Part shown: positions 20,654 to 26,847 of the stretch, piece by piece
Layout of the letters: every line of letters begins with the position of its first letter
Position numbering within the stretch: position 1 is the stretch's first letter
From: Candidatus Daviesbacteria bacterium
GTDB lineage: Bacteria > Patescibacteriota > Microgenomatia > Daviesbacterales > UBA10151
DNA: 64,000 bases
Assembly: GCA_016176465.1 (NCBI GenBank)
Contig: JACOXD010000004.1
Location: forward strand, 114,119-178,118
Reading direction: 5' to 3'
The notes under the pieces: generated by a model
Seen by the model: the letters and a program-made list of their open reading frames with translations, nothing else
The model's database searches: none
What the model was told of the DNA's origin: nothing
Translations under genes and position numbers: made by a program

Positions 20654-21841
20654 TCATACTACAGATTGAGGATCTACCCATACTCTATCTGTTTTCAAAA
20701 GAGTGACAAGGCTTGATAAACCTTCTTCTTGAGGAATACCTCTTTTAAAAACCTCTCCTTTTTTATATAAAGTTATTTTCCCTCCACCCTCTCCTACATA
20801 ACCATAGTCAGCATCTATCATCTCCCCTGGCCCATTGACAATACAACCCATCACAGCAATATTAAGACCAGCTGGTAGGTGAGCTGTGGCATCTTGAACC
20901 TCAGTTAAAACTAATTCTAAATCAAATTTAGTTCTACCACAGGATGGACAGCCTATATATTCCGGTTTTGTACGCCTTAACCCTACAGACTGCAATAAAT
21001 CATAACAAACAGCTATCTCATTAATTGGATCCTCCGAGAGAGAAACTCTAATTGTATCTCCTAATCCTTCCATTAATAAAGTTGCTATCCCAGCGCTAGA
21101 TTTTATTCTGGCATACTGACCTTTTCCAGCCTCAGTTACTCCCAAGTGAAGTGGGTAGCTCATTCCTTCTTGATCCATTCTCACCACCATTAAGCGATTG
21201 GCGGCGATCATCACTGGAACTCTAGAGGATTTAAGGGAAATAACTAAATTATAAAAATTATTTCTTTCACAGATTCTTAGGTATTCCATGGCAGATTCAA
21301 CCATCCCCTCTGGTGTGTCACCATACATTACCAGTAATCTATTAGACAGACTGCCATGGTTGACACCTATTCGCAAGGTAGCATCATTTTCCCGACAAGC
21401 AGCTAAAACAGGGCGCAAGGAATCCTCAATTGCTTGCAATTGATCAGAAACCTCTAGGGGTGTATAATCATCCTTTTCAGCTCTACCTCTGTCCACAAAT
21501 AGCCCTGGATTAATTCTTACTTTATCCACGTAAGGTGCCGCTGCTATTGCAATTTTGCTACCCTTATGATGGACATCAGCTACTAAGCCTACTCTTAAAT
21601 TAAAACTATTTATTTTAGCTCTGATTTGAGAAAGGGGTTCAATGTCATGAAAGGTTGGAGCAGTAATTCTAATAATTTCTGCTCCCGCTCTGGCTAAATT
21701 AACTACTTGGTTAACCACAGCTTCTACATTAGCAGTTGGAGCAGTTACCATAGTTTGAACTGCAATGGGATTATCTCCACCTACTAATACCTCTCCTATT
21801 CTGACAACCCGAGTTATTCTGCGTTCAAAAAACTCTTGCAT
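20654..21841 (-). CDS. ispG: 4-hydroxy-3-methylbut-2-enyl diphosphate synthase IspG/GcpE (MEP pathway)
   Basis: A TIM-barrel N-domain (RIGVNHGSL) and a C-terminal 4Fe-4S domain with CPSCGR...GCIVNGPGE cysteines. Confidence 0.8.
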   Translation of the reverse strand: MQEFFERRITRVVRIGEVLVGGDNPIAVQTMVTAPTANVEAVVNQVVNLARAGAEIIRITAPTFHDIEPLSQIRAKINSFNLRVGLVADVHHKGSKIAIAAAPYVDKVRINPGLFVDRGRAEKDDYTPLEVSDQLQAIEDSLRPVLAACRENDATLRIGVNHGSLSNRLLVMYGDTPEGMVESAMEYLRICERNNFYNLVISLKSSRVPVMIAANRLMVVRMDQEGMSYPLHLGVTEAGKGQYARIKSSAGIATLLMEGLGDTIRVSLSEDPINEIAVCYDLLQSVGLRRTKPEYIGCPSCGRTKFDLELVLTEVQDATAHLPAGLNIAVMGCIVNGPGEMIDADYGYVGEGGGKITLYKKGEVFKRGIPQEEGLSSLVTLLKTDRVWVDPQSVV

Positions 21842-21946: not shown

Positions 21947-23575
21947 TTAATATTCACCCATTCCAGGCATACCTCCAGGAGGTCCGCCAGCTGGCGGAGG
22001 GGGTTCTGGTTGATCTGTTATAAGCACATTTGTTGACATTACCATGATAGCAACAGATGAAGCATTTTGCAGTGCAGTCCTGGTTACTTTAACAGGATCA
22101 ATAATTCCTGCCTTGACCAAATCTTTTAATTTTCCATCATTGACATCTATTCCTAAATTCCCTGATGCTTCTAGTACTTTAGCTAATGCTACTCCCTCAT
22201 CTAAGCCTGCATTTTGGATTAACCTTCTAAAAGGCTGTTCAATTGCTTTTTTAACTATCTCTACTCCTACTTTCTCCTCATCCAATGCAACTTTTAAAGC
22301 ATCTAATGTCTTAGCTACTCTTAGCAAAGCTATCTCTCCTCCAGCAACTATGCCTTCCTCAATAGCAGCCTTGGTTGCAGCAACAGCATCTATTACTCTT
22401 TCTTTCTTCTCCTTCATCTCAAGCTCTGTGGCAGCTCCGACATTAATCACTGCTACACCACCTGTTAGTTTAGCGAGTCTCTCTTGCAGTTTTTCTTTAT
22501 CAAATTCAGAATCAGAACTTTCAATTTCTCTCCTGATTTGAGCAATTCTAGCCTCAATTTTCCCCTTAACTCCTTTACCATCTACAATTAGAGTATTATC
22601 TTTATCCGATGTCACTCTTGCGGCTCTACCCAAATCATCAACCTCTATTGATTCAAATTTTTTACCGGTATCTTCGGAAATTACAGTTCCCCCTGTTAAA
22701 ATAGCAATATCTTCTAACATCTCTTTTCTCCTATCCCCAAACCCGGGTGCTCCAACTGCTAATACATTTATAGTTCCTCTTAATTTATTAACAATAAGCA
22801 AAGCTAATGCTTCACTTTCTACTTCATCAGCAATAATTACCAAGTTTTTAGAAACTTGGACAAATTTTTCTAAGAAAGGTACTAAATCTGAGGCAGCGGA
22901 GATTTTTTTATCAGTAATTAAAATATGTACATCCTCAATTGATGATTCCATCTTATCTGAATCAGTTACAAAATAAGGAGAAGCAAAACCTTTATCAAAC
23001 TCCATCCCTTCTTTATAATCAACGCTCAATTCTAAAGTTTTTCCCTCCTCAACTGTAATTACCCCATCTTTACCTACTTTAGCAATAGCTTCAGAAATTA
23101 ACTGCCCAATTTGGCTATCTTGAGCAGAGATAGTGGCTACTTGAGTGTATTCTTCCTGGGTAGTAAGTTTTTTACTCATTTTTCGAAGCTCTGAAACTAA
23201 AGTATTAATTGCCAGCTCAATTCCCCGCCTTAATATCATAGGATTTGCGCCTGCTTGAATATTTTTTAAGCCTTCAGAAACAATAGCTTGAGCTAAAATA
23301 GTAGCTGTAGTTGTTCCATCTCCTGCTACATCATTAGTTTTAGAAGCTGCTTCTTTAATAAGCTGAGCTCCCATATTCTCAAATGGATCTTCAAGTTCTA
23401 TCTCTTTAGCAACAGTTACTCCATCATGTACTACATTAGGAGCTCCCCATTTTTTATCCAAAGCTACATTTCTACCCTTAGGTCCTAGCGTTGAGGCCAC
23501 AGCATCTGTTAGGGTATTAATACCTTTAAGTAGTTTTTCTCTAGCGCTACTATCAAATAATAATATTTTAGCCAT
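21947..23575 (-). CDS. groEL: Chaperonin GroEL (Cpn60)
   Basis: MAKILLFD...[13 protein letters not shown]...[13 protein letters not shown]..., the apical and equatorial signatures, and a C-terminal Gly/Pro/Met-rich tail. Confidence 0.9.
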
Positions 23576-23578
23576 AAT

Positions 23579-24007
23579 TTATTTTTCAGAACCAGGCAGA
23601 AGGGTTTCTTCCATACTAGATTTTACATCTTGCCCTGTTCCAGCTATAGGAAATTCCCAACCGATTCCAGGATGTTTAGGTGCTCCCTCAATTTTTGGTC
23701 TTTTTCCTACTTCTGTTCCTGCAGCTGTCCTAGCTAACTCCCTCTCATCATCTAAAACTGCTTCCGGATCAGCTATTAATTTCCATCGTTCTCTTGCCTC
23801 ATCAAGTACTGGGTTTGAACCTACCACACCAACTGAATCTAATAAATCACCTATTCTTATGGCTAAACTTTTAACTAACTCATTAGCGACTCCTTCAAAC
23901 TCCAAAACACCTCCCAGTGTATTTTTTTCACCACTTCTAGCCAAAGACCAGGCCGACCTAGCAAGAGTATCAGCTGTATATGCTATATCCATCATTTGTT
24001 CATTCAT
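23579..24007 (-). CDS. Hypothetical protein inserted between groES and groEL, translationally coupled to groEL
   Basis: 142 aa with no recognisable motif. Its stop is 3 nt before the groEL start. Its GC content is higher than that of the flanks. Confidence 0.4.
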   Translation of the reverse strand: MNEQMMDIAYTADTLARSAWSLARSGEKNTLGGVLEFEGVANELVKSLAIRIGDLLDSVGVVGSNPVLDEARERWKLIADPEAVLDDERELARTAAGTEVGKRPKIEGAPKHPGIGWEFPIAGTGQDVKSSMEETLLPGSEK

Positions 24008-24100
24008 ATTTATTCTAAAACTCCCATTAAATCATCAAACAGATCCTTCGCTACTCTCAGGATGACAATTTGATTTGAGAAATTATACTCAAATTGTTAT

Positions 24101-24430
24101 CTACTCCAAAATAGCCATCAGATCGTCGAACTTAACGAGCTTGTACTCCTTTCCTCCTACTTTAATCTCATCTCCACCCCATTTTTTAAAAACTACTTTA
24201 TCTCCCACCTTAACTGGTGCAACCATTACTTTGCCATTTTCCAAAATTAAATCATCACCAACAGCTACCACCACTCCTTGAGCGGGTTTTTCTTGAGCTG
24301 ATTCTGGTAGATAGATGCCTGATGCAGTTTGAGTATCTGCAGCTGATGGCTCAATTAGAGCATATCCCATTAAGGGGCGAAGATTAACTTTAGTAGCATT
24401 ACTTGCTTTATTATTTTTTTGTTTAACCAT
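24101..24430 (-). CDS. groES: Co-chaperonin GroES (Cpn10)
   Basis: VNLRPLMGYALIEP...ASGIYLPESAQEKPAQGVVVAVG...KVGDKVVFKKWGG shows typical GroES mobile-loop and roof motifs. Confidence 0.85.
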   Translation of the reverse strand: MVKQKNNKASNATKVNLRPLMGYALIEPSAADTQTASGIYLPESAQEKPAQGVVVAVGDDLILENGKVMVAPVKVGDKVVFKKWGGDEIKVGGKEYKLVKFDDLMAILE

Positions 24431-24483: not shown

Positions 24484-24523
24484 TTTATACCAAAAACTAG
24501 CAGACTTTGTCAAGACCTGCTAA
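24484..24523 (-). promoter_or_regulatory. Sigma70-type promoter (TTGACA-N18-TATAAA) upstream of groES, overlapped by a CIRCE-like inverted repeat (TAGCAG-N13-CTGCTA)
   Basis: Minus strand: TTAGCAGGTCTTGACAAAGTCTGCTAGTTTTTGGTATAAAT. The -35 is the complement of 24508-24513, and the -10 is the complement of 24484-24489. The inverted-repeat arms resemble degenerate HrcA CIRCE half-sites (TTAGCACTC). Confidence 0.4.
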
Positions 24524-24602: not shown

Positions 24603-24755
24603 TATGTCTATCCAGGTTTTAAATATCTATTCATTTAAGCTAGGGGAGAATCCTAATAAAGAATCTATCTTAACTGAAATAAAACAAGCTTTATCTCAGG
24701 CTAAAGAAAGTTTTTTAAGTTTTCTAACATATGCATTCAAAATTGAACTGCGATA
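24603..24755 (+). CDS. Unannotated small ORF (50 aa) with a strong Shine-Dalgarno sequence
   Basis: AGAAAGGAGGAAATATG gives a perfect AAGGAGG with 6-nt spacing. The ORF reads MSIQVLNIYSFKLGENPNKESILTEIKQALSQAKESFLSFLTYAFKIELR*. It is convergent with, and overlaps by about 60 nt, the end of ORF 24696..25592. It was below the ORF-track length cut-off. Confidence 0.35.
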
Positions 24756-25592
24756 ATCCTTAGGTAAAAAGTATAGCGCTCCATTACTAATCCGCTCTAA
24801 TCCTTGAGGTTTACCCATATATCTTATCTGTAGCCATCTAGCCATAGTTTCTAAAGCTTTTAAAGTATTTTCTATTATGTATCTATTTTGGGAACTTTTT
24901 TTCTTTAGATCCAAAATAGGCAATACTTGATACTTACTACCACTACTTGTTATCCAGTTAGGTAAGTACTTAAAAGCCCAATTATTTTCTGCTAGAAAGC
25001 GAGAATATATATTGTTCTTTTGGTATAAAATCCGCATCTGTAAAACTTCATGTGCAACATAGATATCTTTATTTAACTGGACTAAATTATCTTCATCGAG
25101 TATTATATTTGTACATATCTTTCCAATAGCTTTTTTTCTAGTATACCCTTTTTTCCTTCGTAGTCCAAGCAAATTAAGTAAAAAGATTAGAAGCAATCTG
25201 GAAAACCAGACACTTTTACTAGACGTGATAATAAATAAATCAATGTCATCTTTCTTCCCGCTATTTCCAATTGCTAGTCCTCCAGATATTCCAATTAATT
25301 TTAAAGTGGGGATTAATTTTAGAAAATACAAAATTAAATTTATTTTTTTTAGATATTTTTTAGATATTTTTTCTTTTTGCAACCTTAATCTAACTATTTT
25401 TTTTCTTTTTTTTAAAAAAAAGTATTGTTTATCTTCATCTACTTTTCCTTTTTTCACTAGTTTTTGCAAAATCTTATCAATTTGTTTTAAAGTGCCTTTT
25501 TTCTCTATTAGCCACTTATGAATCTCCCAAGCTTTAAGGGGGTAATCAAAAATATCAGAATAGATTAAAGTCTTTAAAATTGCTTTCTCCAT
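24696..25592 (-). CDS. Hypothetical protein, possibly a nucleotidyltransferase-fold protein
   Basis: GISGGLAIGNSGKKDDIDLFIITS resembles the GS...D.D motif of the Pol-beta-like NTase fold. The rest is Lys-rich and unassigned. Confidence 0.35.
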   Translation of the reverse strand: MEKAILKTLIYSDIFDYPLKAWEIHKWLIEKKGTLKQIDKILQKLVKKGKVDEDKQYFFLKKRKKIVRLRLQKEKISKKYLKKINLILYFLKLIPTLKLIGISGGLAIGNSGKKDDIDLFIITSSKSVWFSRLLLIFLLNLLGLRRKKGYTRKKAIGKICTNIILDEDNLVQLNKDIYVAHEVLQMRILYQKNNIYSRFLAENNWAFKYLPNWITSSGSKYQVLPILDLKKKSSQNRYIIENTLKALETMARWLQIRYMGKPQGLERISNGALYFLPKDYRSSILNAYVRKLKKLSLA

Positions 25593-25704: not shown

Positions 25705-26847
25705 ATGAATGGCTTAGATAGCAAATTCAAAGAAAAAATTGTTAAAGATTTACCCTTTTCAAATCTAACAACCTTAAAAATTGGTGGACCTATCAAGTAT
25801 TTTTTTGAAGCTAAAACTGAGGATGAGTTAATAGAAGCTGTTAAATTTGCTCAAAAAAATTCTCTTCCCTATTTAGTAATTGGTGGCGGATCTAATCTTT
25901 TGGTATCTGATAAAGGATATGATGGACTAGTTATAAAAAATTCCATAACTGGAATAGCGAGGGGTGACAGCGAGGAGAGGTCTTGGCGCGTACCCGCAGC
26001 GATCAGGCAACGACCTGAGAGTGAGGATACACGACGAGAAACCGAGCTGGCAGGACCCGGAGCAATTTTGAAGGTAAAAGGCGGGACTGTTTTACAAGAT
26101 TTAGTGGATTATTCTATAAAAAATGGTTTATCTGGTTTACAAAAGATGACTGGGATCCCAGGAACTATAGCTGGGGCAGTTTATGGAAATGCAGGTGCTT
26201 ACGGCCAAACTATTTCTGACCATATAGTAAAGGTGACCATTCTAAAACCAACAACAGGGTCATCTTTCAACTTAATTGGAGGATCCAGTCAGATAGATTC
26301 CCGCTGGAGTTTACCCCGTACCTCGATACGGGACGGGAATGACAATACTGAAATTAAGACCCTAACCAAAGACGCATGTGGATTTGATTACCGCCATAGT
26401 TCCTTTAAAGAAAACAAATCCATTATTTTAGAAGTAATTTTTGAGCTGGAACAGGGAAATCCTAAAACTTTAAAGAAAGAATCTGAAGAAATTTTAGAAA
26501 AAAGATTAGTTAAATATCCAAAAGGAATTAAATGTCCTGGTAGTTTTTTTATGAATATAGTTACTGAAAATTTGCCAAAGGATGTTTTAGAAAAAATTCC
26601 CCAAAATATGATTATGTATGGAAAAATCCCTGCAGGAGCACTTTTAGAAGAAGTTGGAGCAAAAGGAGATTCAATTGATGGAATAGAAATAGCTCCTTAT
26701 CATGCTAATTTATTTGTTAATAAAGGTGGTGGTAAGGCTGAAGATTTTTACAATTTAGCTAAAAAATATTTTCAAAAAGTTAAAGAAAAATTTGGAATTA
26801 CCCTTGAACCAGAAGTCCAATTAATTAATTTACCAGCCTTAAATTAA
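25705..26847 (+). CDS. murB: UDP-N-acetylenolpyruvoylglucosamine reductase MurB, with in-frame insertions
   Basis: An FAD-binding N-terminus (LTTLKIGGPIKYFFEAKTEDELIEAVKFAQKNSLPYLVIGGGSNLL) and a MurB C-terminal domain. A GC-rich segment of about 105 nt at 25955-26063 (ARGDSEERSWRVPAAIRQRPESEDTRRETELAGPG) interrupts conserved blocks, and it is homologous to an insert in tsaD. Confidence 0.75.
   Translation: MNGLDSKFKEKIVKDLPFSNLTTLKIGGPIKYFFEAKTEDELIEAVKFAQKNSLPYLVIGGGSNLLVSDKGYDGLVIKNSITGIARGDSEERSWRVPAAIRQRPESEDTRRETELAGPGAILKVKGGTVLQDLVDYSIKNGLSGLQKMTGIPGTIAGAVYGNAGAYGQTISDHIVKVTILKPTTGSSFNLIGGSSQIDSRWSLPRTSIRDGNDNTEIKTLTKDACGFDYRHSSFKENKSIILEVIFELEQGNPKTLKKESEEILEKRLVKYPKGIKCPGSFFMNIVTENLPKDVLEKIPQNMIMYGKIPAGALLEEVGAKGDSIDGIEIAPYHANLFVNKGGGKAEDFYNLAKKYFQKVKEKFGITLEPEVQLINLPALN

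Follow-up and report, generated by a model that had tools for sequence, protein, structure and literature searches.

The groESL operon in the 64-kb stretch of Candidatus Daviesbacteria DNA analyzed here (hereafter, the window) is read from the minus strand in the order groES, a 93-nt spacer, a third open reading frame (ORFX), TAA-att-ATG, and groEL. The features of the operon and of its promoter, with exact coordinates for the genes, are the following.

24523..24497, minus strand: inverted repeat with CIRCE geometry, TTAGCAggt-N9-gtcTGCTAg (TTAGCAggtCTTGACAaagtcTGCTAg), overlapping the -35 element of the groES promoter.
24484..24513, minus strand: putative sigma-70 promoter of the operon, TTGACA, 18 nt, TGg-TATAAA, read from the sequence.
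24430..24101, minus strand: groES, 109 aa, ending in ...KFDDLMAILE-TAG; Pfam Cpn10, E=4.1e-28.
24100..24008, minus strand: groES-ORFX spacer, 93 nt.
24040..24100, minus strand: segment of the spacer between the live groES stop and a relic groES end, 61 nt, containing a hairpin element.
About 24066..24042, minus strand: decayed hairpin repeat of the form GTCATYCYG...GRATC (GTCATCCTGAGAGTAGCGAAGGATC), placed by exact match and family consensus.
24039..24010, minus strand: relic groES 3' end, FDDLMGVLE-stop, 30 nt, ending 2 nt before the ORFX ATG.
24007..23579, minus strand: ORFX, 142 aa, NCBI HYS91_01570 (hypothetical protein), ending in TAA (23581..23579).
23581..23573, minus strand: ORFX/groEL stop-start junction, TAA-ATT-ATG, read from the sequence.
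23575..21947, minus strand: groEL, 542 aa; Pfam Cpn60_TCP1, E=1.1e-71.

An earlier note on this DNA, made from its letters and open reading frames, had placed a 142-aa ORF between groES and groEL, separated from groES by a 93-nt spacer and with its stop 3 nt from the groEL start, and all of this agrees with the gene order and coordinates given above (TAA, 'att', then ATG at 23575). The same note had called ORFX and groEL translationally coupled, which stands as a description of the stop-start geometry: coupling is predicted where a stop codon is at most a few nt from the next start or overlaps with it, and the TAA-ATT-ATG junction has this arrangement. Upstream of groES, the putative promoter was absent from the output of the consensus scan, since the rule of that scan demands T as the last base of the -10 hexamer. 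When the inverted repeat at its -35 element was compared to the CIRCE reference (TTAGCACTC-N9-GAGTGCTAA), the outer arms and the spacing matched (TTAGCA-N15-TGCTAG), while the inner arms differed. Of 72 related loci, 20 have the pattern T[TC]AGCA-N15-TGCT[AG][AG] 5' of groES, in every case surrounding a TTGACA, and the repeat is a putative binding site of HrcA. The operon of the window resembles the canonical bicistronic groES-groEL operon under CIRCE/HrcA control, having the same gene order and a CIRCE-geometry repeat at its promoter; unlike that operon, it contains an unrelated third cistron (up to four in relatives) that holds the start context of groEL.

ORFX is a real protein-coding gene, native in style. 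The chance of a 142-codon open frame is about 2e-5 at the local base composition, and a log-odds codon score for which the long ORFs of the window served as the training set, and which blends amino-acid composition with synonymous codon choice, gave 0.53 bits per codon for the ORFX frame, compared to 0.54 for groEL, 0.45 for groES and 0.31 +/- 0.10 for the long genes of the window. The other frames scored from −0.6 to −1.4 (four of five strongly negative), apart from one antisense frame at 0.19, and the antisense 68-aa ORF (23859..24065, plus strand) is an ordinary shadow frame of ORFX. The GC content at the three codon positions (0.57/0.45/0.21) was close to that of groEL (0.54/0.37/0.21), with a strong GC1>GC2>GC3 periodicity. 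The codon-usage consistency that the earlier note had proposed to check is therefore present, and the very poor coding potential that it had raised as an objection does not apply, as ORFX scores like groEL. In addition, Rfam identified no RNA family in the whole window, and the predicted folding of the groES-ORFX spacer was no stabler than that of shuffled sequences (z=−0.36). Although the lack of homologs and the low confidence of the structural model (pLDDT 54) could be cited for a spurious ORF or a non-coding RNA region, we find such an explanation hardly credible in view of the open frame and its gene-like codon score and periodicity.

The predicted protein is acidic (pI 4.65) and begins with M-N-E. 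In the low-confidence, single-sequence AlphaFold model, helices span residues 3-28, 36-58, 66-79 and 81-96, and residues 95-142 form a disordered tail rich in Gly, Pro, Lys and Glu. A Foldseek search of this model against the PDB was uninformative, returning generic and designed helical bundles only (best E 0.6). Most likely, the product is soluble and helical, ends in a disordered tail and has a role that is dispensable and specific to the lineage; it is probably highly expressed.

The searches for homologs returned ORFX itself and nothing else, whether 5.8 billion protein clusters were searched with a word index, 1.84 billion representatives (about 15 billion proteins) were searched exhaustively with phmmer (HMMER), or 241 million metagenome records were scanned with the back-translated sequence; these self-matches bear out the earlier description of ORFX as lineage-specific. 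No paralog was found within the 64-kb window. Its description as an ORF without a recognisable motif was confirmed as well, since comparison by sequence with Pfam, NCBIfam and the PDB gave nothing significant (matches such as DUF7890 at E=0.029 and eL32 at E=0.2, the best in the PDB, are at noise level) and PADLOC and PHROGs gave no match. A Cpn10/GroES-type co-chaperonin, including those of phages, was rejected because ORFX lacks PF00166 and a PHROG match, while groES was found at E=4e-28. When the ORFs found at the same position in related genomes were aligned to ORFX, pairwise and in a multiple alignment, none was significant (best E=0.013, in a five-sequence database, and not credible). 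The positional counterpart at locus L111 and the ORF at locus L131 were also searched against the 5.8-billion-cluster database, but only the queries were returned, so that no profile comparison was possible for ORFX.

groES and groEL are among the most invariant gene pairs in bacteria, and their adjacency is taken as given. To measure the gap between the two genes, we drew on species-representative genomes for groEL loci and on metagenomes for groES loci. The clade set comprised 65 non-redundant Daviesbacteria operons, in which GroES is 60-78% and GroEL about 76-84% identical to the window. Twenty-seven of these operons were tight, with a gap of 1-13 nt, and five were intermediate (35-128 nt), containing hairpins only (L002, L132 and L160), a 24-codon mini-ORF (L085) or a bare 35 nt (L095). 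The other 33 had gaps of 190-1,529 nt, each occupied by between one and four ORFs on the same strand. Outside Daviesbacteria (L008-L081; 73 genomes with both genes), the gap measured 2-193 nt and no relative of ORFX was present. The 40 gap ORFs of at least 60 aa fell into 36 BLAST clusters, and 35 of the 36 distinct ORFs had no match in Pfam, PADLOC or PHROG. The only occupant of a known family (L140:930-1286) encodes a 118-aa four-helix-bundle protein of the 23S-rRNA-IVS/Avd-like type (PF05635, E=1.6e-29) and has spacers of 30-44 nt on both sides, which are rare among the occupants. Assignment of ORFX itself to PF05635/PF22296 was rejected, since only the L140 ORF matched and the other 34 did not, and known anti-phage defence was likewise rejected for ORFX and the slot ORFs, as none of 36 matched PADLOC. 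The largest slot (L118:3809-5339; 1,529 nt) held four consecutive, mutually unrelated ORFs (111, 114, 119 and 146 aa), with spacings of 1-13 nt or an overlap linking neighbours. Across 37 distinct slot ORFs the mean codon score was 0.376, while flanking genes scored 0.31 and shadow ORFs −0.03, and 97% of the slot ORFs scored above the 95th percentile of shadow ORFs. Relative to background, the slot ORFs were enriched 2.35-fold in Arg, with Lys at 0.56-fold, and had a GRAVY of −0.43 (background −0.09) and a median pI of 5.5 (background 7.9). The occupants were thus shown to have protein-like codon statistics and to be hydrophilic, acidic, rich in Arg and Glu, and almost never related to one another. 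We consider it probable that the groES-groEL interval is a hypervariable slot throughout Candidatus Daviesbacteria and that ORFX is what this slot contains in the window.

The survey also bears on whether ORFX could be a dedicated co-chaperone or GroEL cofactor, a conserved partner that binds GroEL/GroES and modulates their action. Where ORFX lies in the operon and the coupling geometry that it forms with groEL would suit such a role, and one may conjecture that a hydrophobic patch in the tail (GIGWEFPIAG) could in principle dock on the apical domains of GroEL. However, tblastn found no match to ORFX in any of 160 related loci, 27 of the 65 operons contain no insert at all, the other occupants are unrelated ORFs although GroEL is 76-93% conserved, and ORFX resembles neither Cpn10 nor any PHROG, which would cover phage co-chaperonins. 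A conserved operon partner of GroEL is rejected on these grounds, and we regard a dedicated cofactor as very unlikely. The earlier note had proposed a co-chaperone-associated protein and had named conservation in relatives as the deciding test; with no homolog, about 40% of the operons empty and unrelated ORFs in the others, a conserved function fails by that test. The absence of conservation and the frequent loss speak against a universal role as chaperonin cofactor, and ORFX is a real gene whose function is probably non-universal.

In tight operons, the ribosome-binding site of groEL is embedded in the 3' end of groES, as in the canonical operon. When the closest pairs of tight and occupied operons were aligned, the extra DNA took up precisely the interval from the groES stop to the groEL coding sequence; in L085 compared to L101, the insert starts immediately behind ATG-GCA and supplies a new ATG-GCT at its end. 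Most slot ORFs start 1-11 nt after the preceding stop, and in 31 of 37 gaps an ORF ends −8 to +22 nt from the groEL ATG. The context of the first slot ORF is that of the groEL ATG in tight operons (...TTGGAGTAAAAAT|ATG GCA...), and since the slot ORF took over the ATG-GCA start of groEL, the slot ORFs share an N-terminus of the form M-[A/T]-E (17 of 37, compared to 11 of 407 background proteins; p=1e-13). The first slot ORF thus reuses the ribosome-binding site and ATG-GCA start of groEL, and the groEL ATG is re-created within a few nucleotides of the stop of the last slot ORF. In occupied operons, groEL has either a new strong Shine-Dalgarno (SD) sequence within the 3' end of the slot ORF or none, and about a third of them, the window included, belong to the latter type. 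In the window, no SD match was found in the 20 nt upstream of groEL (−2.7 kcal/mol, compared to about −5.9 in tight operons). A search of the gaps for relic groEL N-termini gave none that was significant, with L142 marginal. In this locus, the first slot ORF (L142:698-1161) carries a weak echo of the groES C-terminus (EDDLMV, p=0.015) and of the groEL N-terminus (MAKKIIAV, p=0.05), and the L142 slot could be a young one, born from a duplication of the junction.

The spacer between groES and ORFX has a composite structure. Its last 30 nt read TTT GAT GAT TTA ATG GGA GTT TTA GAA TAA, a relic of a groES 3' end, where the live gene ends in KFDDLMAILE-stop. The relic aligned to the C-terminus of the window's own groES with a BLOSUM score of 37, which was reached by none of 200 shuffles, and among 41 gaps scanned a groES relic was found in the window (37) and in L111 (40; IDDLMAILEE-stop) only. 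At the nucleotide level the relic and the live end are identical at 21 of 33 positions, differing at synonymous sites, and each matches the clade consensus at 24 of 33 nt, which leaves their age order undecided. Since the relic ends 2 nt before the ORFX ATG, ORFX would once have been coupled directly to groES, in the geometry that is usual for slot ORFs of other lineages. ORFX now lies 93 nt from the live groES stop, its nearest SD-like sequence being a GGGAG 14 nt 5' of the ATG, and the efficiency of its initiation after the rearrangement of hairpin and relic is uncertain.

The upstream 61 nt of the spacer, 80% identical to L111 over 56 nt, contain a member of a hairpin family, GTCATYCYG-(GC-rich inner stem)-GRATC, of which about 12 copies occur in the 64 kb, mostly as convergent pairs.

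6196 (+), 6254 (−), 7076 (+), 7176 (−), 25614 (+) and 25684 (−): hairpin copies in the window.
26343 (−), 38199 (−), 38212 (+), 60757 (+), 60825 (−) and 24066 (−): hairpin copies in the window.

Intact copies fold with −13.6 to −17.7 kcal/mol (z −2.3 to −3.1), whereas the copy next to ORFX has lost the inner stem and, at −4.6 kcal/mol and z about 0, does not form a stable stem-loop; the hairpin copy of the earlier note is a real member of the family, but a decayed one. The family belongs with the REP/MITE-like palindromic repeats of CPR genomes, whose consensus the spacer element matches and which are dispersed, often in convergent pairs, and also insert in frame into genes (murB). The copy adjacent to ORFX differs from this type in its missing inner stem, and it has no mechanistic link to the ORF. 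The presence of a family member upstream of ORFX had led to the suggestion that ORFX was carried in with the hairpin, but several observations make this highly improbable. The hairpin is separated from ORFX by the relic groES end, whose stop is 2 nt from the ORFX ATG; hairpin copies occur at the orthologous position in L002, L132, L160 and L111, and in the first three the gap contains the hairpin without an ORF, while most slot ORFs have no hairpin; L111, with a gap of 517 nt compared to 525 nt in the window, shares both the hairpin segment and the relic but has an ORF unrelated to ORFX; and no hairpin-plus-ORFX unit was found elsewhere in the window. Since the relic lies between the two, the hairpin represents a separate, secondary rearrangement and not the vehicle of ORFX. 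From the arrangement of the spacer, the 61-nt hairpin segment and the present groES terminus would be the product of this rearrangement, which could have occurred by duplication or by imprecise recombination with a donor operon.

Pairs of related loci indicate how rapidly the slot changes. L131 and L148 have GroEL proteins 93% identical over 538 aa and share no similarity in slot DNA or protein. L133, L151 and L103, with GroEL about 95% identical over a comparable 150-410 aa, differ in their slots, which contain a 65-aa ORF in L133, an unrelated ORF of 127 aa in L151 and nothing in L103, and L130 (4-nt gap) and L134 (295-nt gap) have chaperonins 95.5% identical. By these comparisons, even lineages with 93-95% identity between their chaperonins gain, lose or replace slot ORFs. 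Other occupants are related to each other: the slot ORFs of L131 and L104 are 53% identical at about 90% GroES identity, those of L148 and L116 are 55% and those of L120 and L158 36% identical, and the 24-codon mini-ORF of L085 is a truncated relative of the 65-aa ORF of L133. For slot ORFs, dN/dS was 0.46-0.80, compared to 0.04-0.11 for groES in the same pairs. In L131/L104, a block of 38 codons gave 0.24 (95% CI 0.07-0.65), with dS equal to that of groES, and the remainder 1.4. By these measures, some occupants are inherited and diverge fast under partial constraint. The lineage of the window is poorly sampled, the nearest GroES being 78% identical, and selection on ORFX itself is not measurable from this set. 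The orphan status of ORFX is what the tempo of slot turnover predicts.

Based on the sequence geometry, we propose the following scheme for expression of the operon. ORFX would be transcribed together with groESL from the TTGACA-N18-TGgTATAAA promoter of CIRCE type, and its translation would start at its own A/U-rich leader, with GGGAG 14 nt 5' of the ATG. Because groEL lacks an SD sequence, most of its translation would come from ribosomes that terminate on ORFX and reinitiate at TAA-ATT-ATG. As a consequence, ORFX would be abundant and nonsense mutations in it would lower the output of GroEL, a penalty that would preserve the open frame even for a product of little importance. The coupling of ORFX to groES would have been lost in a later rearrangement that placed the 61-nt hairpin segment and a new groES terminus upstream and left the old groES relic beside ORFX. 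If groEL depended on translation of the slot ORF, uncoupled or decayed slots should be restricted to operons in which groEL has its own SD sequence; this association was not significant (Fisher p=0.35), and a dependence of groEL on ORFX translation can thus only be hypothesized.

The scheme could be carried further by taking the polypeptide to be functionless, so that translation itself delivers ribosomes to groEL and prevents polarity while the sequence drifts within a 'do no harm' limit. We consider this possible but not likely. The overall dN/dS of 0.46-0.80 (1.4 outside the conserved block), the unrelated and often lost occupants, the ORFs covering the gap from end to end, the absence of an SD sequence from groEL in about a third of the occupied operons, and the bias toward hydrophilic, charged residues would all be consistent with a translated spacer of this kind. 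Against it, all 37 slot ORFs show strong protein-like codon periodicity, the codon score of ORFX is as high as that of groEL, the confidence interval of dN/dS for the 38-codon block of L131/L104 excludes 1, and the association of SD sequences with coupling was not significant. Two observations speak for function in at least some products: all occupants are protein-like in composition, and one family contains a constrained block.

The replacement of occupants between near-identical flanks, like that of cassettes, their extreme diversity and a dN/dS above 1 in parts of one ORF could also point to an arms race, in which fast-diversifying effectors are exchanged horizontally with groES and groEL as the recombination arms; anti-phage or anti-hijack factors acting on the chaperonin and host-interaction proteins of an episymbiont are offered as examples. 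The relic groES end could likewise have been left behind when the operon recombined imprecisely with that of a donor. Of 36 ORFs, however, 35 had no PADLOC or PHROG match, no donor copy of any searched cassette was found elsewhere and recombination breakpoints were not demonstrated, and we regard such a cassette system as unlikely. A bolder reading, in our judgment a fairly unlikely one, takes the groES-groEL junction as a dedicated site of gene birth and cassette exchange, with the chaperonin genes as recombination arms and their high, stress-induced expression as the promoter of the payload. At this site the lineage would test and exchange small proteins that evolve fast, are made in abundance and act either on the chaperonin or on partners, from phage or host, that depend on it, and ORFX would be a functional, lineage-private modulator and not a passenger.

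Returning to ORFX as the local occupant of a hypervariable slot, we compared the slot to known systems of small-gene turnover. With flexible genomic islets and phage 'morons', which are small orphans between syntenic genes, it shares presence/absence and replacement polymorphism, orphan occupants and rapid turnover. Morons usually bring their own promoter and terminator, whereas the slot ORFs have neither; unlike morons, they sit inside an essential operon and are, by their spacing, apparently chained in translation to both neighbours. No phage or mobile-element gene was found near the slot. The slot resembles integron cassettes in that its occupants are promoterless small ORFs in one orientation at a fixed site with an upstream promoter, four of them in L118; unlike integrons, its junctions are only 1-15 nt long, with short A/T-rich TAA...ATG repeats instead of attC. 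An integron gene cassette was rejected for ORFX, since the 3 nt between ORFX and groEL leave no room for attC, and no integrase-like gene was found in the conserved neighbourhood.

The long Daviesbacteria loci have a conserved order, c6-c7-murB(−)-c3-groES-slot-groEL-c4-c5(−). The gene upstream of groES (24696-25592, minus strand), encoding a 298-aa protein without a Pfam domain, is kept in this position in most of them (cluster c3). The murB gene of the window (25705..26847, plus strand) has two in-frame insertions (25966-26058 and 26254-26352), about 31 and 33 residues long, that are specific to the lineage. These lie at loops where L002 has other insertions, one resembling a translated hairpin ('VIPAKAGI'), and the second insert contains the hairpin copy at 26343 (−) in a region that is locally GC-rich (0.42). 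Downstream of groEL, most relatives have a gene for a 197-aa predicted membrane protein (c4) followed by c5, while the window has ispG/gcpE (20654-21841, minus strand; E=2e-120), which marks a synteny break just downstream of groEL in the lineage of the window. Singleton ORFs were also found at the other boundaries of groESL, downstream of groEL in 7 of 30 loci and upstream of groES in 6 of 29. Examples directly 3' of groEL are L006:5623-5985, which starts at the groEL stop, L085:5538-5972 and L122:5833-6447. The singleton ORFs downstream of groEL indicate that orphan insertion is not confined to the groES-groEL junction, and the slot may be the most visible and frequent case of a general gene flux that affects these small genomes and is not specific to chaperonins. 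As a control, two other tight gene pairs stayed tight in six loci each, a sample that is too small.

Neither genes lying between groES and groEL nor the chaperonin operons of Daviesbacteria were described in any paper found by a literature search (8 million full texts), and the hypervariable slot in the Daviesbacteria groESL operon is, in this sense, previously undescribed. What was learned of ORFX itself is modest, as it is a real gene of probably non-universal function. It was unexpected, however, that about half of the groESL operons of this candidate-phylum-level lineage hold unrelated orphan genes between groES and groEL. With one site, the same flanks and dozens of independent occupants, the slot offers a natural replicated system for the birth, persistence and death of orphan genes, and it allows testing whether coupling to an essential gene can 'lock in' a dispensable ORF. 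The slot is also a warning that position within an operon is poor evidence of function.
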